A stretch of DNA of 64,000 nucleotides, from positions 768,001 through 832,000 of the forward strand of contig CAWHAZ010000005.1 in NCBI GenBank assembly GCA_963827475.1. The letters are read 5' to 3'. The notes below the pieces were generated by a model. That model was not told the origin of the DNA and ran no database searches. It saw only the letters and a list, made by a program, of their open reading frames with translations. Position numbers and translations under genes: made by a program. How positions within the stretch are numbered: the first letter of the stretch is position 1; each line of letters starts with the position of its first letter. This stretch comes from an uncultured Chloroflexia bacterium (GTDB taxonomy: Bacteria; Chloroflexota; Limnocylindria; QHBO01). Below, piece by piece: positions 28,233 to 45,976 of the stretch.

Positions 28233-30881
28233 ATGCCCCTCGAGACCTACCGGTCCAAGCGCGACTTCGGCAAGACGCCTGAGCCTGCGGGCGCCGTTCC
28301 GGTCGAGACCAGCGGCCGCTTCGTCGTCCAGCGGCATCGGGCTACCCGGCTGCACTACGACCTCCGGCTGGAGATGGACGGCGTGCTCGCCAGCTGGGCC
28401 GTGCCGCGCGGTCCGACCCTGGACCCGGACGAGCGCCGCCTCGCGATGAAGACCGAGGACCACCCGATCGAGTACCTCGAGTTCGAGGCGGTGATCCCAA
28501 AGGGCCAGTACGGCGCGGGGGACATGATCGTCTGGGACTGGGGCACGTTCGAGCCGGAGGAGACCGATGACCCGGCGGCCGCGGTGGCCGCCGGCGAGCT
28601 GAAGTTCCGCCTCCACGGCGAGCGGCTGCGCGGCCGCTTCACCCTGGTGAAGACCCGGGGCCGGACCGATGAGCGGGGACGGACCGAAGGCGGCGACCCG
28701 TGGCTCCTCATCCACAAGCGCGACGAGTACGCGGAGGACGGCTTCGACGCCGAAACCCAGCCGCGGAGCGTCATGACCGGCCGGACCAACGACGAGCTGG
28801 CCGCGGGGCGTGAGCCGCGATTCGAGGCGTCGCCGCCGGCGCCGGAAGGGCCGCTCGACCTGTCGGCCGCCCGGGAGGCGCCATTCCCCGAGTTCATCCC
28901 GCCCATGCTCGCCACGGCGGGGGAGCATCCGTACGAGGACGCGAACTGGCTCCACGAGGTGAAGTGGGACGGCTACCGGGTCCAGGCCGTCGTCCGTGGC
29001 GGGAAGGCCAGGCTGTGGACCCGGAACCGGGCCGACGGGGCGATGTACTTCCCGGAGCTCGCCGGGCCGCCAACCTGGATCGACGCCGCGGAGGCGGTGG
29101 TGGATGGCGAAGTCGTCGCCTTCGGGACCGATGGCCAGCCGAGCTTCTCCGCCCTCCAGGAGCGGACCGGGCTGATGGGCCTCGAATCCCGGACCGGACG
29201 ACGGCGCCCACGCACCAAATCTGACGGTGCGACGCCACCTGAGCGGAGCGCGCCGGCACCGATCATCTACCAGGCCTTCGACCTGCTGTACCTCGATGGG
29301 CGGTCGCTCTTCGACGTCCCCCTCGAGTCCCGCAAGCGGCTGCTCCACCGCGTGCTGCGGCCGCACCCGCTGGTCCGGTTCGCCACCCACGTCGCCGGCG
29401 AGGGATCCGCGTTCCTCGACGCCGCCCTGGCCGGCGGCCTGGAGGGCGTCGTCGCCAAGAGGCGGACAAGCCGTTACCGCCCGGGCGAGCGCTCAGCGGA
29501 CTGGGTGAAGATCAAGATCAAGGCGGAACAGGACGTGGCGGTCATCGGCTGGCTGCCGCGACAGGGGAGCACCGACGACCTCGGTTCGCTGATCGTGGCG
29601 GTGATGAGCCCCGACGGACTGGTGCACGCCGGCCAGGTGGGCAGCGGGCTTGGCGGGAAGGTCCGTCGTGAGCTGTTGAACGCGTTCGCGGACAGCGCCC
29701 GTTCGGACCCGCCGGTCGCGACCGCGCCTGCGCTCCCTGAAGCCCGGTGGGTCGAGCCACGGATCGTGGCCCGCGTGGAGTTCGCCGAGTGGACGCACGA
29801 CGACCTGCTGCGGCAACCGACGTTCCTCGGCGTCCAGGTCGATCGCGACGTGGACTCGACAGTCCGTCAAGATCCCCCCGTGCGCGCCCGCCGCTCGACC
29901 CCGAAGGCACCGCCTGCGTCGCCGGGAGCGGCGCCGGGCGCGAGCGACGAGGAGCAGGCGGCCCTCGACGCGCTGGAGAAGGAGGGCAGCTGGGAGATCG
30001 GTGGGCAGGTCGTCCGCCTCACCAACCTGGACAAGATCCTGTTCCCGGCCCGCGACGATGATCCCGGCCCCCTCACGAAACGTGACCTCGTCCGCTACTA
30101 CACCTCCGTCGGCGAGTTCCTCATCCCGCACCTCCGCCACCACGGCCTGACCCTCCAGCGCTTCCCCGACGGGGTCGAGCGCAAGGGCTTCTGGCAGAAA
30201 GACCTCCCGTCCCACACACCGCCATGGATCAGCCGCCGGGAGCTGACCGACAGCGAGGGCACAAAGCAATACGTCGTCGTCGACCGGGTGGCGACCCTTG
30301 CCTGGCTGTCCCAGGAAGCGGCCATCGAGCTCCATCCATGGACGGCGACGGTCGAGGCCCCGGACCAGCCGCGGTTCGCGCTCATCGACATCGACCCCGG
30401 CGAAGCCACGACGTGGGAGGAGGTCCTCGTACTTGCTCGCCTGTTCCGCGCCGCGCTCGATCATCTCGGGGTCATCGGACTGCCCAAGACCACGGGGAAG
30501 CGCGGCATCCAGGTGTGGGTCCCGATCGCCGACCACTATTCATTCGACCAGACCCGCGACTGGGTCGAGGGGCTGTCCCGGGCGGTGGGCCAGACGGTCC
30601 CCGACCTGGTCAGCTGGGCGTGGACCAAGCGCGACCGGCGTGGTCGGGCCCGTCTCGACTACACCCAGAACGCGCCGATCCGGACCCTCGTGGCGCCCTA
30701 CAGCGTGCGGCCGTCGCCCGGTGCGCCGGTGTCGGCGCCGATCACCTGGGACGAGCTCGAGGACCCCGAGCTCGGGCCCGAGCGGTGGACGATTCGCACC
30801 CTCCCGGCCCGCCTGGCGGAGGTCGGCGACCTCTTCGCTCCCGCCACGACGCTGCGCCAGGAGCTGCCGCCGCTCGGTTGA
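28233..30881 (+). CDS. ligD: NHEJ DNA ligase D (phosphoesterase-ligase-polymerase)
   Basis: YRSKRDF.KTPEP, HYDLRLE (PE); EVKWDGYR, EGVVAK (LIG); TNLDK, RFPDG, DIDPG, KTTGKRG (POL). Confidence 0.96.
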   Translation: MPLETYRSKRDFGKTPEPAGAVPVETSGRFVVQRHRATRLHYDLRLEMDGVLASWAVPRGPTLDPDERRLAMKTEDHPIEYLEFEAVIPKGQYGAGDMIVWDWGTFEPEETDDPAAAVAAGELKFRLHGERLRGRFTLVKTRGRTDERGRTEGGDPWLLIHKRDEYAEDGFDAETQPRSVMTGRTNDELAAGREPRFEASPPAPEGPLDLSAAREAPFPEFIPPMLATAGEHPYEDANWLHEVKWDGYRVQAVVRGGKARLWTRNRADGAMYFPELAGPPTWIDAAEAVVDGEVVAFGTDGQPSFSALQERTGLMGLESRTGRRRPRTKSDGATPPERSAPAPIIYQAFDLLYLDGRSLFDVPLESRKRLLHRVLRPHPLVRFATHVAGEGSAFLDAALAGGLEGVVAKRRTSRYRPGERSADWVKIKIKAEQDVAVIGWLPRQGSTDDLGSLIVAVMSPDGLVHAGQVGSGLGGKVRRELLNAFADSARSDPPVATAPALPEARWVEPRIVARVEFAEWTHDDLLRQPTFLGVQVDRDVDSTVRQDPPVRARRSTPKAPPASPGAAPGASDEEQAALDALEKEGSWEIGGQVVRLTNLDKILFPARDDDPGPLTKRDLVRYYTSVGEFLIPHLRHHGLTLQRFPDGVERKGFWQKDLPSHTPPWISRRELTDSEGTKQYVVVDRVATLAWLSQEAAIELHPWTATVEAPDQPRFALIDIDPGEATTWEEVLVLARLFRAALDHLGVIGLPKTTGKRGIQVWVPIADHYSFDQTRDWVEGLSRAVGQTVPDLVSWAWTKRDRRGRARLDYTQNAPIRTLVAPYSVRPSPGAPVSAPITWDELEDPELGPERWTIRTLPARLAEVGDLFAPATTLRQELPPLG

Positions 30882-30883
30882 GC

Positions 30884-30925
30884 ACAAACGAAGGCGCCAC
30901 GGCCGATGTGATGACCGTGGCGCCT
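30884..30925 (-). terminator. Intrinsic terminator for the minus-strand peptide transcript (may also serve ligD)
   Basis: Perfect 11-bp stem AGGCGCCACGG/CCGTGGCGCCT, followed on the minus strand by TCGTTTGT. Confidence 0.75.
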
Positions 30926-30974
30926 CCCCCCCGGGTGGATTAGACCGTGCGTCCGATAATCGGACGCGGAACGG

Positions 30975-31013
30975 TTAACGGGGCCAACCACCCCCGGTAG
31001 TCGCGGAGCTCAT
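30975..31013 (-). CDS. Putative 12-aa peptide MSSATTGGGWPR (candidate signalling peptide)
   Basis: GGGAGA RBS 7 nt before ATG, TAA stop, then hairpin GCGTCCGA/TCGGACGC and a terminator; divergent from an XRE-TPR regulator. Confidence 0.55.
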   Translation of the reverse strand: MSSATTGGGWPR

Positions 31014-31140
31014 GTGGTCTTCTCCCGTCGGTTTGTGGCTCACCCAGACGAGTGAGTGCCACGCACCCAGACACTCGCAGGCAGAAGTCCGCCGCGACAA
31101 TGGCCCGGGGGTACCGTCCCGCTCCACTGGGGCCAGTACT

Positions 31141-31201
31141 TTCCTCCGCCGATTTCGGCGGTGGAACCGGTCAAGTAGGGCTTGCCCGACCGGTGTAGAC
31201 T
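31141..31201. promoter_or_regulatory. Divergent control region: two inverted repeats and the regulator -10 box
   Basis: TTCCTCCGCCGA-TT-TCGGCGGTGGAA (31141-31166); ACCGGTC-N15-GACCGGT (31166-31194); TAGACT at 31196-31201. Confidence 0.55.
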
Positions 31202-31209
31202 CACGGCCA

Positions 31210-32514
31210 ATGCCGCGGACCCGGACCCCGGTAGATTCGACCGAGCAGGACGCCGCGCTCGAACTGGCGCGGCGTGTTGGTGAGCGGATCCGGGTTGCCC
31301 GCCGCCGCGCCGGACTGACCCAGACCCAGCTGGCCGGCGATCGGTACACCAAGGCCTACATCAGCGCCCTCGAAACCGGGATCACCCGCCCGTCGATGGT
31401 CGCCCTCAACTACGTCTCGGAGCGGCTCGGCCTGCCGGCCAGCCACTTCCTCGGCGATACGAACCCGACATGGACCCGGCTGGAAGTCGACATGCGGCTC
31501 GCCGCCGGCGACTGGGCCCGGGCCGCCGATGGCTACCGCACGTTATTGGGCGAGGCGCTCGGCGACGTGGCGCGGGCCGAGGTCCTGCGAGGCCTGGCCG
31601 AGGCGGAATCCCGACAGGACCACGGACGCGAGGCGATCGCCGCCGCCGCGGAGTCGGCCCGGCTGTTCGGCGCCCTGGGCCGCGCCGCGGACGAGGCGCT
31701 GGCCCGCTACTGGCTGGCATACGGCACCTACCTGACGGACAACGAGGCGGATGCACGGACCCAGCTCCAGGCGCTGCTCGGCCAGACCCGCGAGGGGCTC
31801 CGAGTGGAGCCGGAGTTCGAAATGCGCGTCCTCACCGCCCTCGCCGCGGTCGAGTCACGAGTGGGGGAGCACGCGCGGTCGCTGGCGTATCTCGAGGAGG
31901 CGCGGGGACTGGCTGACGACCTCGACGACCGGCGGCGCGCGACATTCCTGTTCAACCTGGCCATCAGCTACCGCGAGACAGGGGACGTGGAGGCGGCCAT
32001 TCGCGTCGGCCAGCAGGGGCTCGCCCTGTACCGGGCCGCCGGGGCGCCGTTCGAGTCCGCAACCATCGAGAACGACCTCGCCCTCGCCTATCTGGCCATG
32101 GGCAACCTCGAGCGCGCGACGGAGATGGCGTCGGGCGCCCACGAGCAATTCGAAACGGCCGGGGACGATCGGTTCCTGGCTGCCGTCCTGGACACGGAAG
32201 CCCAGATCGCGCTTGCCGGGGGGAAGCACGATCGGGCATTGGCCCTGGCGGCCCGCTCGCACCAGCTGGCCCGGGACACCGGCAACCGGCTGGTGGAGAT
32301 GCTGGCCCTGGTCACCGCGGCGCGGATCTCGCGGGCTCGCGGCGACCGTGCCGGTGCCGAGGCGCGCTACGCCGCAGCCGCGGAGTTGGCGCGGGCCGGC
32401 TCGGGCCAGGGACGCCTGCGCGAGCTGCTGGGAGAGTGGGCCGAGCTGCGGGCCGAGGGCGGCGACTTCCAGGGAGCGTACGAGTTAACTTCAGAGGCCG
32501 TCGCGGTCAATTAG
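31210..32514 (+). CDS. XRE-family HTH + TPR transcriptional regulator (RRNPP-like architecture)
   Basis: RRRAGLTQTQLAGDRYTKAYISALETG..RPS HTH, followed by Ala-rich TPR-like helices (FNLAISY, ENDLALAY). Confidence 0.9.
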   Translation: MPRTRTPVDSTEQDAALELARRVGERIRVARRRAGLTQTQLAGDRYTKAYISALETGITRPSMVALNYVSERLGLPASHFLGDTNPTWTRLEVDMRLAAGDWARAADGYRTLLGEALGDVARAEVLRGLAEAESRQDHGREAIAAAAESARLFGALGRAADEALARYWLAYGTYLTDNEADARTQLQALLGQTREGLRVEPEFEMRVLTALAAVESRVGEHARSLAYLEEARGLADDLDDRRRATFLFNLAISYRETGDVEAAIRVGQQGLALYRAAGAPFESATIENDLALAYLAMGNLERATEMASGAHEQFETAGDDRFLAAVLDTEAQIALAGGKHDRALALAARSHQLARDTGNRLVEMLALVTAARISRARGDRAGAEARYAAAAELARAGSGQGRLRELLGEWAELRAEGGDFQGAYELTSEAVAVN

Positions 32515-32517
32515 GTA

Positions 32518-32547
32518 TTGACAGGGCCAGTCCGGTCGGGTTAGGTT
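32518..32547 (+). promoter_or_regulatory. sigma70-type promoter immediately after the regulator stop
   Basis: TTGACA-18 nt-TAGGTT. Confidence 0.6.
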
Positions 32548-32553
32548 TCGTCT

Positions 32554-32655
32554 CGGAACGAACCGGTGTGGGCACCCGCCACACGGCGGACCGGTTCGCA
32601 TACTCGGGGGACGAGGGATCGGGGAATGGGCACAGCTCCCCGGTCCCTTTGTTGT
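32554..32655 (+). ncRNA. Putative ~100-nt structured small RNA
   Basis: Own promoter; stem CGAACCGGT/ACCGGTTCG; terminator GGGATCGGGGA/TCCCCGGTCCC+TTTGTT; TGGGCAC unpaired in both hairpins. Confidence 0.5.
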
Positions 32656-32659
32656 GCGC

Positions 32660-33244
32660 CTACTGCGGCACCTGGGGAACGACCGGATCGACGAGCTCGA
32701 ACCCGCCCTGGGCGTACACCGCGCCCTCCGGCTGCAGGTAGATCTTCATCGTGAACCGCCCGTACCCGAAGCCGGCGATCATGTTCGCCGCGGTGGTCTC
32801 GTAGCCGAAGCTGACCGGCTCGGGCAGCAGCCGCTGGGGGCTCGGGGCCTGGAGGACGATCTCCTGGCCGGCCTCGAATCGCGTCACCGCGACGTAGACC
32901 TCCGGCACGCCCGGATGGACGGGCGGATTGACCGAGTAGGCGAACGGATCGTCGTGGGTGAAGGCCGTAGCAGCCTGGGTCACGAGGTACGTGTCGGGAT
33001 CGATCGCGAGCCCAAAGGTGATCGGCAGCGGCCCGGCGGCCGGAGTCGGGCTCGGCTGCGCCGGGAGATCCGAGACGACCGATGCCAGTCCGACCAGGAT
33101 GAGCACCAGGCCGACCCCCAGCACCAGCGTCGTGCCGCGGCCCGGTCGTCGGATGTCGGGCCGACCGATGGGAGCACGCGGCCGGGCCCGCGGACGGGAC
33201 CCGACCGTCTGCGGCACGGCCTGGGTGCGCCGTCGGCGGCTCAT
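32660..33244 (-). CDS. Hypothetical single-TM protein with extracytoplasmic beta domain
   Basis: Arg-rich N-terminus, TM, Pro linker; TAGAGT 8 nt upstream. Confidence 0.7.
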   Translation of the reverse strand: MSRRRRTQAVPQTVGSRPRARPRAPIGRPDIRRPGRGTTLVLGVGLVLILVGLASVVSDLPAQPSPTPAAGPLPITFGLAIDPDTYLVTQAATAFTHDDPFAYSVNPPVHPGVPEVYVAVTRFEAGQEIVLQAPSPQRLLPEPVSFGYETTAANMIAGFGYGRFTMKIYLQPEGAVYAQGGFELVDPVVPQVPQ

Positions 33245-34830: not shown

Positions 34831-37800
34831 TCAGTCCCGCGCCATCTCCGCGAAGCGGGCGAGGGCATTCGCCAGCCGCATCTCCTCCGGGGAGCGGACG
34901 CGGACGCGCAGGAGGTCCGGCGAGGCCACGACCACGGCAACGCATCGCGCCCGCGATGTGGCCACGTTCAGGCGGTGGCGGCTGTAGAGGAACGACATGC
35001 CTCGCGGAGCGTCCTCCGCCGAGGACGACGCCATGCTGTAGATCGAGATCGGCGCCTCCTGGCCCTGGAACTTGTCAACGGTGCCGACTCTCGCCTCGTC
35101 CGGCAGGAGCTTCTTGATCTCGCCGACCTGCGCGTTGTACGCCGCGACGATCACGATGTCGCTCCACCCAATCCGCTGTTCCACTCCCGCATCGTCGATC
35201 CAGGTCGCTCCGCCATCCACCAGGGAGCGCGTCAGGTCGGCGACGATGGCCGCCTCTTCCGGGGATTCGTTGTCGTTCCCGGCATGATCGACCGCCACCA
35301 TGCGTGGACCGGTCCCGGTGAGCGGGGCATGGCCGTGGAGTGTTTGGACCCGGAGTTTGGGCTCCGGTTCGAGCCGACTCTCGTAGAACACCTCGGAGGT
35401 GTAGTCGCACAGGTCGGGATGCAGACGCCAGGTCCGTTCGAGGAACAGGCCGCGGTCGTCGGCGATGGTCGCGGCCTCGCCGAGGAGATGGGCGAGCGCT
35501 GAGCGGTCCGCTCCCGGCGGGTGCGAGCCCTGGAGTGGCTGGTCGAGCTGCTGGGGATCCCCGAGCAGGACCAGTGACTCGGCCGATGGCGCCGCGGCCA
35601 GCACGTTGGCCAGTGACATCTGTCCCGCCTCGTCCACGAACAGGACGTCGATGGATCCGATCATGTCCTCGCGGGCCCAGAGCCACGTCGTCCCGGCCGC
35701 GATGTCCGCCGCCCCGGAGGCCAGCGCCTGCCGCACGTCCTCGTTCGTCTTCGCCGACTGCGCGGCTGGATGGACGAACCCGGGATCGTTCTTGCCCGGC
35801 TTCTGGATGATGCGGACGGGCATGTTCTCCTCGTCCGCGGCCTCCGCCAGCTTCTCCAGAAAGTTGCTGATGACCTTGTGGCTGTTGGCGGTCACGCCGA
35901 TCCGCTTCCGCGCACGGATGAGGTCCAGTGCCATCCGCGCGCCGCTGTAGGTCTTGCCCGAGCCCGGTGGGCCCTGCACGGCGAGGGTGGAGCGGTCGAG
36001 ACTCATCACCAGCCGCCTGGCGGCATCGAGGTCCACCTCGTCTGGCATCCGCAGCGGGGCGCCGGGCACCAGGTCGACGCGTGGCGGCCGTGCGAGGAGG
36101 AGATCGACCGCGGCCCGACGGGGGCTGTCCTCGGCGAGGCCGTGCTCCGCCACCGATTCGCCCAGTCGAAGCAGCGAGTCCTCCTGCGCATCGGTCCGGT
36201 AGTCCTCGTACGGGATGAGGGCGGTCGGGTGGGGAGCTGCGTTCCGCCTCGTCCGCCGCAGGTCAATGGTGTGCCCCACCTCGTCCAGGGCCACGATGTC
36301 GCCGGGATCCTTGAAGGCATCCTTGATGCCCCAGGTGTTGGGGTCGATGACGGTGGATCCGACTTTCAGGTCGTACTCCTGTGTCGGGAATCGGTAGCGG
36401 TGGACGAGCGCCTTGTCGGTCTCCTCGACAACGCCGACGTACTCGAGCCCGGACAGCGGCTCGCTGGCGTCGACGCGCTCTTCATCGGTCAGCTCGTCCT
36501 TCAGATGGAAGAAGAGCCACCACCAGCTCTTCTTCTCGCGACGGTGCCATGACAGGAGCTGAGCCAGCAGCCAACGGGCCTGCTGCTCTGCCGTGCGCCC
36601 TTCCTCCGGAACGTCAGTGGTGAGGCGATTGGCCACGGCGGCGACCACCATCTGTCGATCGTTCAGACCGGGGCTGGGCTCGGCATCGCGAGGTCCGGGG
36701 CGCGGTACGGTCTGGCCCGTCTCCTGGGCCAGCTGCTCGCGCCGTGCCTCGAGCCAATCGCGCAGCCGCTGGGTGCTGACCACGTCGTCGCGGTTGTAGC
36801 CCTCGATCCGTGCGAGGTGATCGGCGCCGGGCCGGTCACCTTCGCCGAGCTCGAGCCACTCCTCGAACGCAACGATGCTCGATCCAGCGTCGCGCAGGTC
36901 CACGGTGCGAGTGAAGTCGTACAGCGGCTCCAGCTTCTTGATGCCGTAGCCCTCGACGGACGCCCGGATGCCCTGTCGAACGACACGGTAGAGGTCGACC
37001 AGCGCGCCACCGCGCAGGAGGCGGTCGACTTCGTTCTCCTTGGTCGCGTGGCGACCCATGAGTCGTTTCAGGGCCGTCGGCTCGTACGGGGCGAAGTGAT
37101 AGATGTGGGCATCCGGATGGGTCCACAGCCGCGCCATGAACAGGTCGACCACTGCCTCGAAGGCGCGTTTCTCGCCATCGAGCGTGAACTCGCCGCCGGC
37201 ATCGCGCGACCAGATCGGATGCCACGCGCCATCTATGTCCATCACCCCGAACAGGTAGTCGAGGCCGTCGAGGTCGGCGTACGGGTCGCCCTCCATGTCG
37301 AAGAAGAGATCGCCTGATGACGGGGGCGGCAGGCCGGCCAGGCCGACACCCGGCTCGAGGGGTTGTGCGGGATCGGTCACGAGCTCGTAGATCATCTCCC
37401 CGCGTTGCCGCCCGTCGAACTGGACGCGCGCCTGATCACGGACTCGCTCGATGGCGCCGCGGCTGGGCCCGGTCAACGGGGGAGCCATCGGAAGTTCGAG
37501 CACCGCCAGCTCGGCCAGGGTCGTCACCGCGCGGCCTTCGAGCGCCTGACGCTGCCGTCGGCTGATGCCGGCAACCAGGCTGAGATGGTCGTCGTCTCGC
37601 CGCCGCCGGTTGCAAACCAGCCGCCAGCGGCAGACCTCGCAGTGGTCGACCGGCTCGGGGTAGGTTCCCGCCGGCGGGTACGTCGCCGCCTGGGCGGCCG
37701 GACCCACGGCGGCATCGAACCGCGACCGGGCGAGGCGGTAGTAGGCCATGTAATCCGCCACCCGCAGCGTGCGCAGCCCGCCTGCGGATCCGCCGAGGAC

Positions 37801-38334
37801 GACGTGGAGATGGACTGGCTCGACGCCCTGGATATCGGTCAGGAGGTCGATGTAGGTGCAGATCTGGAGCACCGCGCCGGCCTTCACATGGCGGGCCAGC
37901 TTGGTGTCGGCAACCTCGTAATGAAACGGGCCCCAGCGGCTCGGCCGCTCCAGCGCCTCGGCCCGCAACAGGAAGTCCGCGTGTCCTCGCCAGGTGCCGT
38001 CGAAGAACGTCGCCTGGTAGATGACGTCGGTCCCTGCCGCCATCGCCCGCTCGGTCTCGGCGGCCGCGGCACTGAGCCGGTCCCCCTGGTCCTCGATTGA
38101 CCCGTCGAGCGCGATCTTGACCACTGAGCGCCCTTCCGCCTCCAGGGTCTGGAGATAGCGCTCCTCGTGCTGTTCGCCGCGTCGGCGCAAGACGTCAAGC
38201 TCCGGATCGTCGAGGTGAGGCCGCTCGACGAGCCCAGCCAAGGCCGCCCGCTCGAGCTCGGTCAGGTGCTCGCACGCGAGGTAGCCCACCAGGTCGGTGG
38301 CAGAGTAGACGGGGCGGCCGTCGATCAGCTGCAC
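34831..38334 (-). CDS. TM0106 family RecB-like nuclease / SF1 helicase
   Basis: SATDL..YLAC.H, G.ADFL, YEVADTKLA, FFDMEGDP (RNase H-like), QGPPGSGKT, DEAGQ, TVDKFQGQE, RLNVATSRA. Confidence 0.93.
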   Translation of the reverse strand: MQLIDGRPVYSATDLVGYLACEHLTELERAALAGLVERPHLDDPELDVLRRRGEQHEERYLQTLEAEGRSVVKIALDGSIEDQGDRLSAAAAETERAMAAGTDVIYQATFFDGTWRGHADFLLRAEALERPSRWGPFHYEVADTKLARHVKAGAVLQICTYIDLLTDIQGVEPVHLHVVLGGSAGGLRTLRVADYMAYYRLARSRFDAAVGPAAQAATYPPAGTYPEPVDHCEVCRWRLVCNRRRRDDDHLSLVAGISRRQRQALEGRAVTTLAELAVLELPMAPPLTGPSRGAIERVRDQARVQFDGRQRGEMIYELVTDPAQPLEPGVGLAGLPPPSSGDLFFDMEGDPYADLDGLDYLFGVMDIDGAWHPIWSRDAGGEFTLDGEKRAFEAVVDLFMARLWTHPDAHIYHFAPYEPTALKRLMGRHATKENEVDRLLRGGALVDLYRVVRQGIRASVEGYGIKKLEPLYDFTRTVDLRDAGSSIVAFEEWLELGEGDRPGADHLARIEGYNRDDVVSTQRLRDWLEARREQLAQETGQTVPRPGPRDAEPSPGLNDRQMVVAAVANRLTTDVPEEGRTAEQQARWLLAQLLSWHRREKKSWWWLFFHLKDELTDEERVDASEPLSGLEYVGVVEETDKALVHRYRFPTQEYDLKVGSTVIDPNTWGIKDAFKDPGDIVALDEVGHTIDLRRTRRNAAPHPTALIPYEDYRTDAQEDSLLRLGESVAEHGLAEDSPRRAAVDLLLARPPRVDLVPGAPLRMPDEVDLDAARRLVMSLDRSTLAVQGPPGSGKTYSGARMALDLIRARKRIGVTANSHKVISNFLEKLAEAADEENMPVRIIQKPGKNDPGFVHPAAQSAKTNEDVRQALASGAADIAAGTTWLWAREDMIGSIDVLFVDEAGQMSLANVLAAAPSAESLVLLGDPQQLDQPLQGSHPPGADRSALAHLLGEAATIADDRGLFLERTWRLHPDLCDYTSEVFYESRLEPEPKLRVQTLHGHAPLTGTGPRMVAVDHAGNDNESPEEAAIVADLTRSLVDGGATWIDDAGVEQRIGWSDIVIVAAYNAQVGEIKKLLPDEARVGTVDKFQGQEAPISIYSMASSSAEDAPRGMSFLYSRHRLNVATSRARCVAVVVASPDLLRVRVRSPEEMRLANALARFAEMARD

Positions 38335-41272: not shown

Positions 41273-42268
41273 GTGGCCGCAACTCGGCGGCGCTCGCTGC
41301 AGATTTCGGTAAGCCTCATCGCCACCATGTCTCTGGTGCTGGGAGGGGTCGCGCCGGTCGGGGCTGCGTCCGTGATGTCCGTGAACATCCAGTCGTCGCC
41401 GACGCTCGTGACTCGTGGCGGGCCGGTCTCGTACGTGGTCTCGGTGCAGAACACCGGGAACAACTCCATCAACCACGCGACCCTCGAGGCCGATACCCCG
41501 AGCGGGTTCACCTATCGACGGGCGATCACCAGCAAGGGCAGCTGCAACGCGGCCCCCGCCGCTGATCCACTCTGCGACCTTGGACAGTTCAGCGCAGGCA
41601 CTCCGGCCCTGGTGGTGCTGGTCTTCGACACGTCCCCGAATGCACCGCTCGGGAGCTTCGATTTCGTGGTGACGGTCCGGGGCGGCGAAGGCGGAAACGA
41701 CCAGCCGCACTCCTCGCACACCGACACCTTCACCGATGAGACCGAGACCATCGTTCTCGCGGTGAACCAGGACTTCACGACCCACTACATCGTTCCCGAG
41801 GGCGACGACATCACGACCGGCGGACTGCTCGGGGCGACGGCCCTGTCGTCGACGAACCCTCAGGGCACGCAGGCCCTGGTCCCGAACACGCCATTCGGCG
41901 TTCCGGCCGCGGTAGGTGAGGCCGGAGGTCCGGCCGACAACTGCCCGCCGGCATTCCTGGACAGGTGCTTCGGTCAGTCCTCGACCGTGTCGGTCGGCAA
42001 CGGGATCGTTCTCTCGCCGCACCTGATCGTCCAGGTCCGCTTCGACTCCACCGTGGTTCGCCGGCTGAACGAGCGGAAGCTGGTCATCATCCACTGGTTC
42101 GATCCGGTCCCGACCGCCGGCTTCGAGGAGATCACCCGGATCTGCTCCGACGCGACTCCGGCCAGTTCCGAGCTGCCGTGCCGGCTACCGGTTCAGGTGA
42201 TGCCTGACAAGGATTGGCTGGTCACGATCTTCATGACCAGCAACGGGGTCATCAAGGGGCGCGGCTGA
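41273..42268 (+). CDS. Secreted DUF11/Ig-like domain protein
   Basis: Signal peptide, G..VSYVVSVQNTG, paired Cys; GGAGG RBS. Confidence 0.7.
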   Translation: MAATRRRSLQISVSLIATMSLVLGGVAPVGAASVMSVNIQSSPTLVTRGGPVSYVVSVQNTGNNSINHATLEADTPSGFTYRRAITSKGSCNAAPAADPLCDLGQFSAGTPALVVLVFDTSPNAPLGSFDFVVTVRGGEGGNDQPHSSHTDTFTDETETIVLAVNQDFTTHYIVPEGDDITTGGLLGATALSSTNPQGTQALVPNTPFGVPAAVGEAGGPADNCPPAFLDRCFGQSSTVSVGNGIVLSPHLIVQVRFDSTVVRRLNERKLVIIHWFDPVPTAGFEEITRICSDATPASSELPCRLPVQVMPDKDWLVTIFMTSNGVIKGRG

Positions 42269-45200
42269 GTTCGGTCAGTCGCGCGGCTGACGCCACATCT
42301 CCTTTCGCTCCGTAGATAGCCAGGGCCTCGCTGCGGGCCTCGGCCGCGGTGAGAGCCTCTCCGGCTGCCGTCAGCGCCTCGGCCAGGTCGGAGAGGGCGA
42401 GCGCGGTGACCATCGGCATCTCCGCGTCGCGCGCGAGGCGGACGGCTTCCTGGGCCAGCTCGACCGCCCCGTCGGCGTCGCCGTTCGCCACCAGGATGGC
42501 CGACCGGAGACCGCGCCAGCGTGATTGCGCATCGAGGTCGTCGCTGGCCGCCAGCGACTCGGCCCGCCCGGCCTCCGCCGCCGCCTCCTCGTACCGGCGC
42601 TGTTCCACCAGGGCCCGGCCCAGCATGCTGGACACGCTTGCCAGGTAGAAGGTGTCACCGACGCCGGTGAGGACGTCCGCTGCCTCCCGCAGGACCTGTT
42701 CGGCGGTCGCCGGCTGTCCCGCGCGGAGCTCGACCTCAGCGGCGTCCAGGGCCAGCTGCGCGGCGAGCACCGGCTGGCCCAGCTCGTGTGCAGTCCCTCG
42801 AGCGCCCTCGTACAGCTCCCTTGCCGACTCGAATTGTCCGCACATGGCCTGCAGCTGGGCGGTCGCGGCCTTCACGACCACCCCCGTCGCCCGGTCCGTG
42901 CCCACGTCGATCAGCAACGTCTCGAGCCGCCCCGCAGCCACATCCGCTGCCGTCGGGCCGTAGGTCAGCGCGATGGCGAGGTTGGAGATGCCGCGGAGCC
43001 GCTGCCGCTCGTCTCCTGCCTTGCCCGCGAGCGCGATGACTCGCTCCGCATCCGCCGCCGCCTCGGCAAAGCGTCCCGCGGTCCCGTGCGCCACGTAGCG
43101 AATGCGCCACCCGAGCGATGCGCCGGCGAGGTCGTCGGTGGCGTCGAAGGTGGCGAGGGCGCGATCGGCCTCGGACAACGCCCGGGTCGCCCAGTTCGGC
43201 CCGGGAGACGAGGCGAGCTCCAGGCGGATGCGGAGCAGACGGGCCTTGGCCGCCGAGCCGGGGTCCTCGGCCGCGTCCGCGGCGGACTCGATCGCCTCGA
43301 GGAGCGCGCCAGACTCCGCATATGCCCCGGTCTCATCGAGCGCCTCGGCGAGGAGCAGCTCCGCGCCACGGGCATCCGCTGAATCCGGCGCCAGGGCCAC
43401 CGCCCGCCGCAGGAGGTTGATGGCGGCGTGCCAGTCCTCGCGCGCGAACGCAAGCCGGCCGGCCGCTCCCAGGAGTCCTGCCGCGCGGTGGCCCAGCGCG
43501 CGACCACGGTCGTCGAGCGGGCCGAGGCCCAGGAGGTTGAGGTGCGCCTGCTCGAGGTGATAGGCGATGACCTCTTCCACCTCGCCCAGGCGATCGGACT
43601 CGTGCGCGGCCAGCCAGTCCGCGTAGCGCTCGTGCAGCGTGGCCCGTGCCCGCTTGAGGATCGCCTGGTAGGCGGTGTCCCGGATGAGCTGGTGGTTGAA
43701 CCGATACCCGACGATCACCGATCCGGTCGGACGGAGGAGCTGCTTGTCCGTCAGGTCGGAGAGGAGCGACTCCACCTGTTCGCGAAGCGGGTCCGGCGCC
43801 AGATCGGTCACGGCCGGCGTCGGAAACTCGACACCGATGACCGCCGCCGGCTCCGCGACGGATCGCTCCTCACGCCGCAGTCGATCCAGGCGGGCCGCAA
43901 GCAGGGCATGAATGGTGGGCGGGATGGCGAAATCCCGAGCGTCGCCACTGACCTGCCACGACCCATTCGTGGCGTGGATCGTGCCGTCGTCGACCAGCAT
44001 CGACAGCATCTGCTCCACGAAGAGGGGATTGCCGCCCGACGCCCGAGCGATCCGATCGCGAATCGAGGCCGGCAAGCCGGCCGCGCCCAGGAGGTTGGCG
44101 GCCACCGCGGCAACCTGCGCCTCGGAGAGCCCTTCGAGGGACACGCGAACGCTGCACGCTGCCTGGCCCCAGGTGGGCCGCGTCTCGAGCAGATCGTGGC
44201 GGGCGGTGGCCAGGACGAGGACCGGAGCCTCCGCGAGGTTCTCCGTCAGGTGCTCGAGGAGATCCAGGAACGTCGGCTCGGCCCAGTGGATGTCCTCGAT
44301 CACGACCACCACCGGACGCTCGTGGGCGAGCACCTCGAGGAAGCGTCGCGAACCCCAGAACAGCTCGGTCAGCGGGAACTGGGCCGTCGACAGGCCGATG
44401 GCGGAGGCCAGTCGCTCGACGATCTCGGGATCGCCGGCCAGCGCCTGGAGCTTGTCCAGCGCCAGCTGGGCGGGCGTGTCGATGCCGATCCCGGCCGCGT
44501 CACGCACGACCTCGCCGAGCGGCCAGAAGGTGATCCCATCCCCGTAGGACAGGGCTCGGCCGCGGAAGACGCGAGCCTCGTCGCCGAGCGAGGTGAGGAA
44601 CTCCCGGATCAGGCGCGACTTGCCGACGCCCGCGTCGCCGAGGAGGGTGACCGCGTGGCATCGTCGCCCGTCGACCGCGCGCTGATAGGCGGCGCGCAGC
44701 TCCTCCAACTCGGCGTCGCGGCCCACGAGGGGCGTGTCGACTCGTCGCGCGACCCCCTCGTCCGTGCCATGCACCGCCAGCAGGCGGTAGGCGGCCACCG
44801 GCTCGGCCTTGCCCTTGAGGTCGAGCGGGTCCATCTGTTCGACCTCGACCGCATCACGAACGAGCCGGTACGTGCTGCCGCCAATGACGACCTCCATCGC
44901 CGGAGCGGCCTGCTCCAGCCGAGCGGCGACGTTCGCGGTGTCCCCGGTGACGACCTGCTGCCCCGTGACCGATTCGCCGGCCACGATCTCGCCGGTGTTC
45001 ACGCCGATGCGGGCTTCGATCGCCGTGCCGAAGGTGCGCTGCAGCTCCTCGTTGAGGTGCCCGAGGGCAATCTGCATCTCGTGCGCGGCTCGGACGGCAC
45101 GGAGCGCATCATCCTCGTGGACCCTCGGCAGCCCGAAGACGGCCACGATCGCATCGCCGATGAACTTCTGGATGGACCCGCCGTGCCGCCGGAGGATGGC

Positions 45201-45452
45201 GGTCATGACCTCGAAATACCGGTTCAGCAGGCCGGACATCGCCTCGGGGTCGATGCGCTCCCCGAGGCTGGTGGAGCCGACGAGATCGGAGAAGACGATC
45301 GTCACAATCTTCCGCTCCTCCGGCGACGGGAGGACCGGCTCCGGAGGGACCAGCGACGACCCGCAGTAGCCGCACAGCCGAAAACCCTGAGGGTTCTCCG
45401 AACCGCAGCTGGGGCAGACCTGCATGCCGGCCGCCACGGAGTCGTCCGTCAT
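42252..45452 (-). CDS. Class III adenylate/guanylate cyclase with double zinc ribbon, AAA ATPase and TPR domains
   Basis: CPSCG..N..CGYCG, ERKIVTIVFSDLVGST, KFIGDA, GDTANVAARL, GDAGVGKSRL, GNPLF. Confidence 0.93.
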   Translation of the reverse strand: MTDDSVAAGMQVCPSCGSENPQGFRLCGYCGSSLVPPEPVLPSPEERKIVTIVFSDLVGSTSLGERIDPEAMSGLLNRYFEVMTAILRRHGGSIQKFIGDAIVAVFGLPRVHEDDALRAVRAAHEMQIALGHLNEELQRTFGTAIEARIGVNTGEIVAGESVTGQQVVTGDTANVAARLEQAAPAMEVVIGGSTYRLVRDAVEVEQMDPLDLKGKAEPVAAYRLLAVHGTDEGVARRVDTPLVGRDAELEELRAAYQRAVDGRRCHAVTLLGDAGVGKSRLIREFLTSLGDEARVFRGRALSYGDGITFWPLGEVVRDAAGIGIDTPAQLALDKLQALAGDPEIVERLASAIGLSTAQFPLTELFWGSRRFLEVLAHERPVVVVIEDIHWAEPTFLDLLEHLTENLAEAPVLVLATARHDLLETRPTWGQAACSVRVSLEGLSEAQVAAVAANLLGAAGLPASIRDRIARASGGNPLFVEQMLSMLVDDGTIHATNGSWQVSGDARDFAIPPTIHALLAARLDRLRREERSVAEPAAVIGVEFPTPAVTDLAPDPLREQVESLLSDLTDKQLLRPTGSVIVGYRFNHQLIRDTAYQAILKRARATLHERYADWLAAHESDRLGEVEEVIAYHLEQAHLNLLGLGPLDDRGRALGHRAAGLLGAAGRLAFAREDWHAAINLLRRAVALAPDSADARGAELLLAEALDETGAYAESGALLEAIESAADAAEDPGSAAKARLLRIRLELASSPGPNWATRALSEADRALATFDATDDLAGASLGWRIRYVAHGTAGRFAEAAADAERVIALAGKAGDERQRLRGISNLAIALTYGPTAADVAAGRLETLLIDVGTDRATGVVVKAATAQLQAMCGQFESARELYEGARGTAHELGQPVLAAQLALDAAEVELRAGQPATAEQVLREAADVLTGVGDTFYLASVSSMLGRALVEQRRYEEAAAEAGRAESLAASDDLDAQSRWRGLRSAILVANGDADGAVELAQEAVRLARDAEMPMVTALALSDLAEALTAAGEALTAAEARSEALAIYGAKGDVASAARLTELSRAP

Positions 45453-45976
45453 GGCCGGCGGATCAGGGACAGCCAGTCTGCGATCCGGCCGAGCGCATCG
45501 TCTCGGACGCGGTCGAGGCCATGGCCCAGGCCGGGGTAGGTCACGAGCGTTGCCGACGGGAGTCGCGGGACGGCGTCCCGCAGCAGCTCGATGCGCGCGA
45601 ACGGGTCCGACTCGCCACTCAACAGCAGGACCGGGCACGAGATGCGGGGCCAGTGCGCCGTTCGTTCGTCGACTCCCTCCGGATGCCCCGGGCGGTGGAG
45701 CGGGTAGCAGAGCAGGACCAGGCCGGCATATCGGCCCTCGGCCGCGATGAGGCTCGCCACGCGGCCACCGAACGACCGTCCGCCGATCACGGTGACGTTG
45801 CCGGGCGGAGCGGCTTCGCGGTACACCGGCAGGGCGCGTTCGGCGGACCCCTTGGGGAGGGGGACGAAGCGCGACTCGAAACCTCGCTCGGCCAGCGCGG
45901 CGATCCACGGCCGCATGGAGTCTTCCCCTCCGCTGGCCCCCGCCGCGAGGTGGACGCGAAGGCTCTCACCCCTCAT
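45449..45976 (-). CDS. Alpha/beta hydrolase (KANL3/Tex30-like)
   Basis: GGRSFGGRVAS, YPLH.PG, GESDPF, GHGL. Confidence 0.85.
   Translation of the reverse strand: MRGESLRVHLAAGASGGEDSMRPWIAALAERGFESRFVPLPKGSAERALPVYREAAPPGNVTVIGGRSFGGRVASLIAAEGRYAGLVLLCYPLHRPGHPEGVDERTAHWPRISCPVLLLSGESDPFARIELLRDAVPRLPSATLVTYPGLGHGLDRVRDDALGRIADWLSLIRRP

Follow-up and report, generated by a model that had tools for sequence, protein, structure and literature searches.

The RopB activator SIP of Streptococcus pyogenes is a leaderless peptide that is translated in its mature form. Leaderless communication peptides (LCPs) are characterised in PMC10518010 as mostly 8–10 residues long, highly hydrophobic and paired with receptors of the RopB/Rgg type; the same paper has the leaderless peptides of Firmicutes leaving the cell by a non-Sec route. 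Signalling through RRNPP receptors is presented in PMC10075063 and PMC10518010 as a trait of Firmicutes and phages, and these papers and PMC9765709 place such systems in Firmicutes and their mobile elements. In a literature search, which was not exhaustive, no publication described a pair of this type from Chloroflexi, Chloroflexota or Limnocylindria, or from any other group outside Firmicutes. The present analysis concerns a 12-codon open reading frame (ORF) on the minus strand of a 64,000-nucleotide stretch of DNA from an uncultured Chloroflexia bacterium (GenBank assembly GCA_963827475.1, contig CAWHAZ010000005.1, positions 768,001 to 832,000), here called the window. The ORF diverges from the gene of P0001, a regulator with a helix-turn-helix (HTH) domain and tetratricopeptide repeats (TPR). 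We consider it moderately probable that the encoded 12-mer is the ligand of this neighbouring receptor and that the two form an RRNPP-like pair, in a derived form without signal peptide. The genome comprised 1.92 Mb on 7 contigs and was 90% complete; the G+C content of the window was 70.7%.

Direct reading of the minus strand reproduced the arrangement proposed in a first-pass annotation of this DNA, namely GGGAGA, 7 nt, ATG, 12 codons and TAA, with the start codon at 31013–31011 and the stop codon at 30977–30975 (Table 1). The GGAG at the Shine-Dalgarno position was at least 90% conserved across 98 distinct loci. The 12-mer is rich in Gly, Ser and Thr and hydrophilic, with a mean hydropathy of −0.62. 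Residue 2 of MSSATTGGGWPR is Ser, so that by the known rule of methionine aminopeptidase the initiator Met would be removed and the product is probably SSATTGGGWPR.

The double 3′ hairpin described in the annotation was found, but not all of it was retained in relatives. Reading on from the TAA, the minus strand showed ACCGT, TCC, GCGTCCGA-TTA-TCGGACGC and ACGGT, with the last base at 30944. The inner seven pairs of this first hairpin were paired in 87.9% over 14 same-genus sequences, including one compensatory pair, whereas the outer extension ACCGT/ACGGT kept just three of its five pairs (69% of cells paired) and the first hairpin was not present in the other genera compared. The second hairpin, an intrinsic terminator with a T-rich tail facing the minus strand, was present as claimed, at 30927–30890 and just beyond the annotated range of 30944..31026. 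It lies 48 nt from the TAA. Its stem, counting G-T, has 15 pairs, of which 11 are G-C, and runs into the tail GTTTGTGCTC. This was the only terminator-like site in 30500–31600, where shuffled sequences gave an expectation of 0.3 ± 0.7. Its alignment held 12 pairs, 100% paired, with two compensatory changes, and other genera carried a terminator hairpin of different sequence in the same place. The annotation was also right that no other minus-strand gene explains this terminator: none lies upstream of it, and the gene on that side is the convergent ligD. The terminator between ligD and the peptide gene could serve both. Because the peptide gene has its own ribosome-binding site (RBS) and terminator and no downstream gene, its product would be the point of the transcript.

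Compared across relatives, the 12-codon ORF is a genuine protein-coding gene. Conservation of ATG, RBS, frame and the GGWP motif had been named beforehand as the test. Among 50 distinct loci with the 12-codon form (short form), all 50 kept the ATG, all 50 the stop at codon 13 and all 50 the RBS and the frame. The core T-G-G-G-W-P varied almost only at third codon positions: over codons 6–11, entropy was 0.08 bits at the first, 0.10 at the second and 0.74 at the third codon position, against 1.5–1.9 bits at most flanking positions. Ser at codon 3 was encoded by TCN in 15 of these loci and by AGY in 23. The third-position variation and the use of two Ser codon families show selection on amino acids, not on RNA. 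Within the genus of the window, 14 of the 17 other genomes yielded a 451-nt region; across the 15 aligned loci, RBS, ATG, frame and stop were constant and third codon positions varied. A frame of 12 codons is short enough to occur by chance in any one genome, and it might be no gene but a chance ORF within a non-coding small RNA or a terminator region. A comparison of 30500–31600 with Rfam at a permissive threshold did return four matches, all far under their gathering scores; the best, ncS54, reached 18.7 bits against a gathering score of 43 and covered the terminator alone. Chance is contradicted by the third-position pattern, by Ser codons from two separate families, by an ATG and a stop that never vary and by the absence of matches to a reversed search pattern. 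We give this reading practically no credence, and it is refuted as far as sequence comparison allows.

The search pattern was ATG-N12-ACNGGNGGNGGNTGGCC and the control was the same pattern reversed. A single match was found in the window's own genome. In the class sample, 47 of 401 genomes held matches, all of them in family f1 of Candidatus Limnocylindria, and the 247 genomes of other families held none. Within f1, matches were present in genera g1 (14/16), g21 (21/25), g27 (9/12), g2 (1/52) and g3 (1/5). The phylum-wide sample gave seven genomes out of 401, again all f1, and none among the 384 outside f1. The reversed pattern had no match in the 401 class and 401 phylum genomes. The pattern with its stop codon was present on 48 metagenome contigs, whose 20 distinct peptides all fit xxxxxTGGGWPx. 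An RBS-like purine run preceded the ORF in 46 of the 48, and the conserved upstream blocks were found in 41 of the 43 contigs with enough upstream DNA. The counted rows include two unpublished genomes, G016 (locus L009) and G386 (locus L024), and their omission lowers counts by at most two; none of the conclusions depends solely on them. Nine pair-bearing contigs (L081, L091, L100, L101, L107, L108, L126, L133 and L142) were placed in metagenome-assembled genomes (MAGs) labelled Steroidobacteraceae, Angelobacter, Binatia, Gemmatimonadota and Methylomirabilota; mis-binning or mislabelling is likely.

The proposed receptor P0001 was present in single copy in the window's genome. Its true start is the ATG at 31210, and all 45 complete orthologues in the comparison begin with MPRT(R/K). 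Its sequence showed neither a signal nor a membrane segment. Pfam assigned TPR_12 with an E-value of 1.2e-13, while HTH_3 and HTH_19 remained below their cut-offs at 4–5e-4; against NCBIfam there was no match above any cut-off. The closest relatives of the regulator were labelled 'Candidatus Limnocylindria bacterium' or Chloroflexota MAGs. An AlphaFold2 model calculated from 28 orthologues had a mean predicted local distance difference test score (pLDDT) of 89.2 and a predicted template modelling score (pTM) of 0.73. It placed a helical domain of DNA-binding type at the N-terminus, followed by paired helices to the C-terminus. Foldseek with this model listed LGN first (generic TPR, E 3e-9), then PlcR (E 1e-6) and a plasmid Rap (E 1.7e-6). 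With VIA-align, the best bacterial match was NprR in its apo form (5dbk_A; Z 25.6, root-mean-square deviation 5.1, 346 residues over model positions 6–434), and phage and Bacillus Rap proteins (Z 24.7–25.5), the NprR-NprX complex 4gpk (Z 23.7) and AimR (Z 21.5, 366–371 residues aligned) were also recovered. Among the matches listed, the top bacterial chains were all peptide-sensing RRNPP receptors. Rgg/RopB entries were not among the 50 VIA-align matches listed, and a family absent from that list is not thereby excluded. As modelled, the architecture of P0001 is that of an RRNPP receptor, cytoplasmic with an N-terminal HTH and a TPR superhelix, and most like that of NprR. As TPR superhelices generally resemble each other, this gives no grounds to claim common descent with the Firmicutes receptors.

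Loci were fetched by the regulator from species-representative genomes, using the best 80 of 241 relatives. Two of these had too little upstream DNA; in the remaining 78, a small ORF was present without exception, divergent from the regulator and 164–199 nt from its start. It was short in 34 loci, including one read-through of 22 residues, and long in 44, with 37–43 residues. The read-through was found in L007 (same contig range as L068), where the stop is lost and the frame continues through the first hairpin to give MRSVTTGGGWPRKDRTAPGDGR. Regulator orthologues with 64–68% identity were detected in all five other f1 genera tested. Four of the five held a longer ORF with the same type of core in the same divergent slot, for example MRMQRVIRSVLLATSLAALSMLAVISTVAACSNGAGWPS and MRATRILRSILLAGTIAAVTLVSIATTVLGVTTGGGFPH, and the fifth, L052, held the short form MQHVTNGSGFPA. 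Outside f1, no orthologue was found in five f2 genomes, one f4 genome or one f5 genome, and one of three f3 genomes held a 50% paralogue. Two regulator paralogues with 50% identity, L057 and L066, were without the motif ORF.

All 43 distinct long forms had two to four Lys or Arg within the first 10 residues, followed by an uncharged run of 20–30 residues (mean hydropathy of residues 10–27, 1.5–2.1) and a small-residue site, V-M-A in 25 of the 43, directly before a tail of 8–13 residues. Tails included ASGGGDFPRLR, STGGGDFPR, TTGGGFPH and VTGGGTWPIRF. The long forms are thus predicted to consist of a Sec-type signal peptide, with cleavage ahead of a short C-terminal peptide. The short forms, M-x-x-x-x-T-G-G-G-W-P-x, shared the ATG position, RBS and upstream blocks with the long forms, and the short gene looks like the long gene after an in-frame loss of its hydrophobic part, some 27 codons. 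The same core behind a signal peptide in orthologous slots argues that the 12-mer corresponds to a pre-peptide without its leader. A longer hidden precursor, which the first-pass annotation had wished to exclude, was ruled out. An in-frame stop was present upstream of the ATG, in the intergenic region, in 44 of 51 short-form loci and within 20 codons in 15 of those 44. The window's own upstream frame is open but closed in close relatives. No in-frame extension of a short locus was hydrophobic, the highest mean hydropathy over 15 residues being 0.94.

The shape of the ORF also bears on whether it acts in cis, for example by ribosome stalling at W-P-x-stop as in TnaC or SecM, with control over the fate of its transcript. 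The C-terminus is the most conserved part, the stop does not shift, and in the window's genus a hairpin follows directly 3′ of it. SecM-type monitors, too, join a signal peptide to a C-terminal arrest motif. However, nothing lies downstream to be regulated, as the terminator is followed by the convergent gene ligD, the first hairpin is missing outside the genus, and the position just ahead of the stop varies more than any other in the peptide, with six residues recorded there. A stalling function is therefore regarded as very unlikely.

For 89 distinct regulators, of which 46 had a short and 43 a long ORF, a quick maximum-likelihood tree was calculated and rooted on a 50% paralogue. The long forms were basal and the short forms derived. 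One clade held 45 of the short-form rows, with a Shimodaira–Hasegawa-like approximate likelihood ratio test (SH-aLRT) support of 85, and L052 was placed elsewhere. The long/short label needed two changes on this tree, and none of 500 shuffles needed as few. When the tree was constrained to hold all 46 short rows together, the log-likelihood was better by 3.98 and the approximately unbiased test gave p = 0.60. Two independent losses of the signal peptide are not required, as the single-origin tree was unrejected and slightly better; by these tree comparisons, a single loss accounts for the data no worse than two. The direction of change was probably from long to short, a polarity supported because deletion of a signal peptide is far easier than its invention.

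The order of genes around the ORF was highly conserved. A receptor match adjoined the small ORF in 46 of 47 loci, and a LigD match did so in 45 of 47, in at least three genera, with both misses at locus ends. It is conceivable that the peptide is functional with a target other than the neighbouring regulator, in the cytoplasm or the envelope, and that the adjacency is inherited gene order within a single family. The order ligD, small ORF, regulator was kept as a block in 45–46 of the 47 loci and is to that extent not regulator-specific, and covariation between W or F in the peptide and receptor columns had no power with its four independent pairs. Against such a different target stand the divergent layout, kept in all 78 assessable loci, with its shared region of 164–199 nt and blocks at least 90% conserved, the architecture of the regulator, which is the one bacterial type known for sensing short linear peptides, and the regulator paralogues that occur without the ORF. 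We regard another target as rather unlikely. The peptide is very short and conserved, and its invariant core is Gly-rich and accompanied by an aromatic residue and Pro, which would also suit a ribosomally synthesised precursor that is modified after translation into a peptide product or a cofactor. A Pfam scan of 20–44 kb, however, found no modifying-enzyme genes for such products, and the long forms carry a Sec-type signal instead of a recognition leader, which makes a modified peptide highly improbable.

The 196 nt between the two start codons were compared in 98 distinct loci, which included both peptide forms. Blocks with at least 90% conservation are given in Table 1 in the sense of the peptide gene. 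The GTAC, G.AC and GGG..ATTG blocks (31098–31139, minus strand) may serve as operator or promoter elements. For the 5′ region, RNAalifold with 95 distinct sequences gave no consensus fold (−0.76 kcal/mol), the 5′ blocks matched no Rfam family, and a sigma-70 promoter scan returned no sites. TTGAC-N17-TAC may be the promoter of the peptide gene. On the receptor side, the conserved hexamer 8 nt before the ATG, with no Shine-Dalgarno sequence between them, suggests that the receptor mRNA is leaderless. Genus g1 alone showed an insertion of about 15 nt between TTGAC and GTAC (31141–31168, minus strand). It apparently duplicates the TTGAC region; several members carried a second TCGACC/TTGACC-like copy there, and in the window the insertion holds a small hairpin, CCGCCGAAATCGGCGG.

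Table 1. Positions of the peptide gene, the regulator gene and associated features in the window
Feature	Position	Strand	Basis or remark
12-codon gene and stop, MSSATTGGGWPR then TAA	30975..31013	−	direct sequence reading
Shine-Dalgarno-like GGGAGA	31021..31026 (read 31026–31021)	−	7-nt spacer AGACCAC, then ATG
First 3′ hairpin, GCGTCCGA/TCGGACGC with partial outer extension, genus-specific	30944..30975	−	
Intrinsic terminator of the small transcript; may also end convergent ligD	30890..30927	−	
Regulator P0001, XRE-HTH and TPR, 434 residues, proposed receptor	31210..32514	+	Pfam, AlphaFold2 model
Divergent control region, 196 nt between the two start codons	31014..31209	.	consensus of 98 distinct loci
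Block AGTnTAC			
Block GGCAAG	31186–31181		
Block TTGAC	31174–31170		
Block GTAC	31139–31136		
Block G.AC (window GTACC)	31114–31110		
Block GGG..ATTG (window GGGCCATTG)	31106–31098		
TAGACT, −10-like hexamer, 8 nt before the receptor ATG	31196..31201	+	conserved as TAnACT
ligD, ATP-dependent DNA ligase D, convergent neighbour	28233..30881	+	LigD_Prim-Pol E 2.4e-83 (Pfam)

In the mechanism proposed here, the small gene would be transcribed from the region it has in common with the divergent regulator gene, translated from its own Shine-Dalgarno sequence and ended by its own terminator. In sister genera, the pre-peptide of 37–43 residues would be exported, cut and re-imported, the secretion being predicted from its signal peptide. 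In the lineage of the window, the signal-peptide codons would have been deleted in frame, and synthesis would leave the peptide in the cytoplasm from the outset. Despite this change the peptide retains its core, and its gene still adjoins that of a cytoplasmic regulator. An intracellular target is then the simplest assumption, and the neighbouring regulator is the obvious candidate. The 12-mer would bind the TPR superhelix of this regulator and alter the binding of its HTH at the conserved blocks, resulting in autoregulation as in RRNPP systems. It may act in the producing cell, or after non-Sec export as the leaderless peptides of Firmicutes do. The first-pass suggestion of a leaderless ligand or an intracellular effector peptide gains support from the divergent HTH and TPR regulator and from the signal-peptide forms of the sister genera.

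Several observations weigh against this proposal. HTH_3 in P0001 fell under the Pfam cut-off, and sequence similarity to solved structures was limited to the HTH (phmmer; PlcR E 0.004, ComR E 0.088), with NprR not among these matches. The eukaryotic LGN reached Z 28–29 and ranked above every RRNPP receptor (at most 25.6). The synteny of ligD was as faithful as that of the regulator, and the adjacency could be inherited gene order. The root of the regulator tree depended on a single long outgroup branch. No exporter for a hydrophilic 12-mer was found. Contigs from four rhizosphere RNA libraries of one study, 90–99% alike, covered all of 29800–32600; the even cover over 2.8 kb gave no strand, ends or level and may reflect DNA carry-over, and we do not take it to demonstrate expression.

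Other genes of the neighbourhood were, by Pfam, a HAD hydrolase, an aminotransferase, a helicase and similar. Downstream of the regulator, 32660–33244 on the minus strand encodes a protein of 194 residues without Pfam match, whose N-terminus is rich in Arg and which has a single hydrophobic segment; it was kept in the genus and showed about 38% identity in two other genera. Also on the minus strand are a protein of 1167 residues with RNase_H-like and superfamily-1 helicase domains (34831–38334) and one of 1218 residues combining a zinc ribbon, an adenylate/guanylate cyclase, AAA_16 and TPR (42252–45908). Binding proteins of the Opp/Dpp type (SBP_bac_5) had 10 matches in the window's genome; the family is near-universal and was also present in 11 of 14 control genomes. 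On contig C2 of G000, at about 73161–74127 of the minus strand, an SBP_bac_5 gene matched in pieces, with in-frame TGA stops, and may be a pseudogene or the result of misassembly.

In one family of soil bacteria, uncultured and abundant, the conserved pair exists in two versions, with and without a Sec signal. Comparison of the two versions provides a direct argument for a conserved core that acts inside the cell, and the pair lets one ask how a communication circuit changes once export of the signal stops. With 12 codons, the gene ranks with the smallest in bacteria that are well supported, and gene callers miss genes of this size. That the loss of the signal peptide turned a cell-to-cell signal into a private, cell-autonomous one is a tentative idea and rather doubtful; if true, the ligand would arise beside its receptor within the cell, and the circuit would report the cell's own state of transcription and translation, not population density. 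The leaderless form would then be under strong selection across several soil Limnocylindria genera, the pair would present a natural experiment for a peptide core that acts in the cytoplasm, and it would be the first RRNPP-like pair outside Firmicutes, with secreted and private versions.

Among known systems, NprR-NprX of the Bacillus cereus group is similar in its receptor of about 430 residues with an HTH and a long TPR superhelix, in the adjacent small peptide gene and, in the sister genera, in a pre-peptide with a signal peptide and an active-looking C-terminal core. It differs in that the host here belongs to Chloroflexota, not Firmicutes, and the peptide of the window has no signal peptide. 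The window's peptide likewise lacks the secretion signal that is a feature of classical RRNPP systems, while the sister genera have it by sequence. PlcR-PapR and AimR-AimP also combine HTH and TPR receptors with an active peptide formed by the C-terminal 5–7 residues of a secreted pre-peptide, as in the long forms; the present receptor is longer than PlcR (434 against about 290 residues), and, unlike the hosts of AimR and PlcR, its host is a member of Chloroflexota. In contrast to SecM and TnaC, there is no downstream gene on the same transcript. The analogy to RopB-SIP drawn in the first-pass annotation stood in part. Like RopB-SIP and the LCPs, the locus has an ultrashort ORF without secretion or processing sequences, divergent from the gene of a cytosolic receptor with an HTH and repeats. 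The likeness did not extend to the chemistry of the peptide, which has 12 residues and is Gly/Ser/Thr-rich and hydrophilic, or to the receptor, which is NprR/Rap-like and not demonstrably Rgg-like. Unlike LCPs, this leaderless form has a traceable origin, as sister genera hold a version with signal peptide in the same slot.

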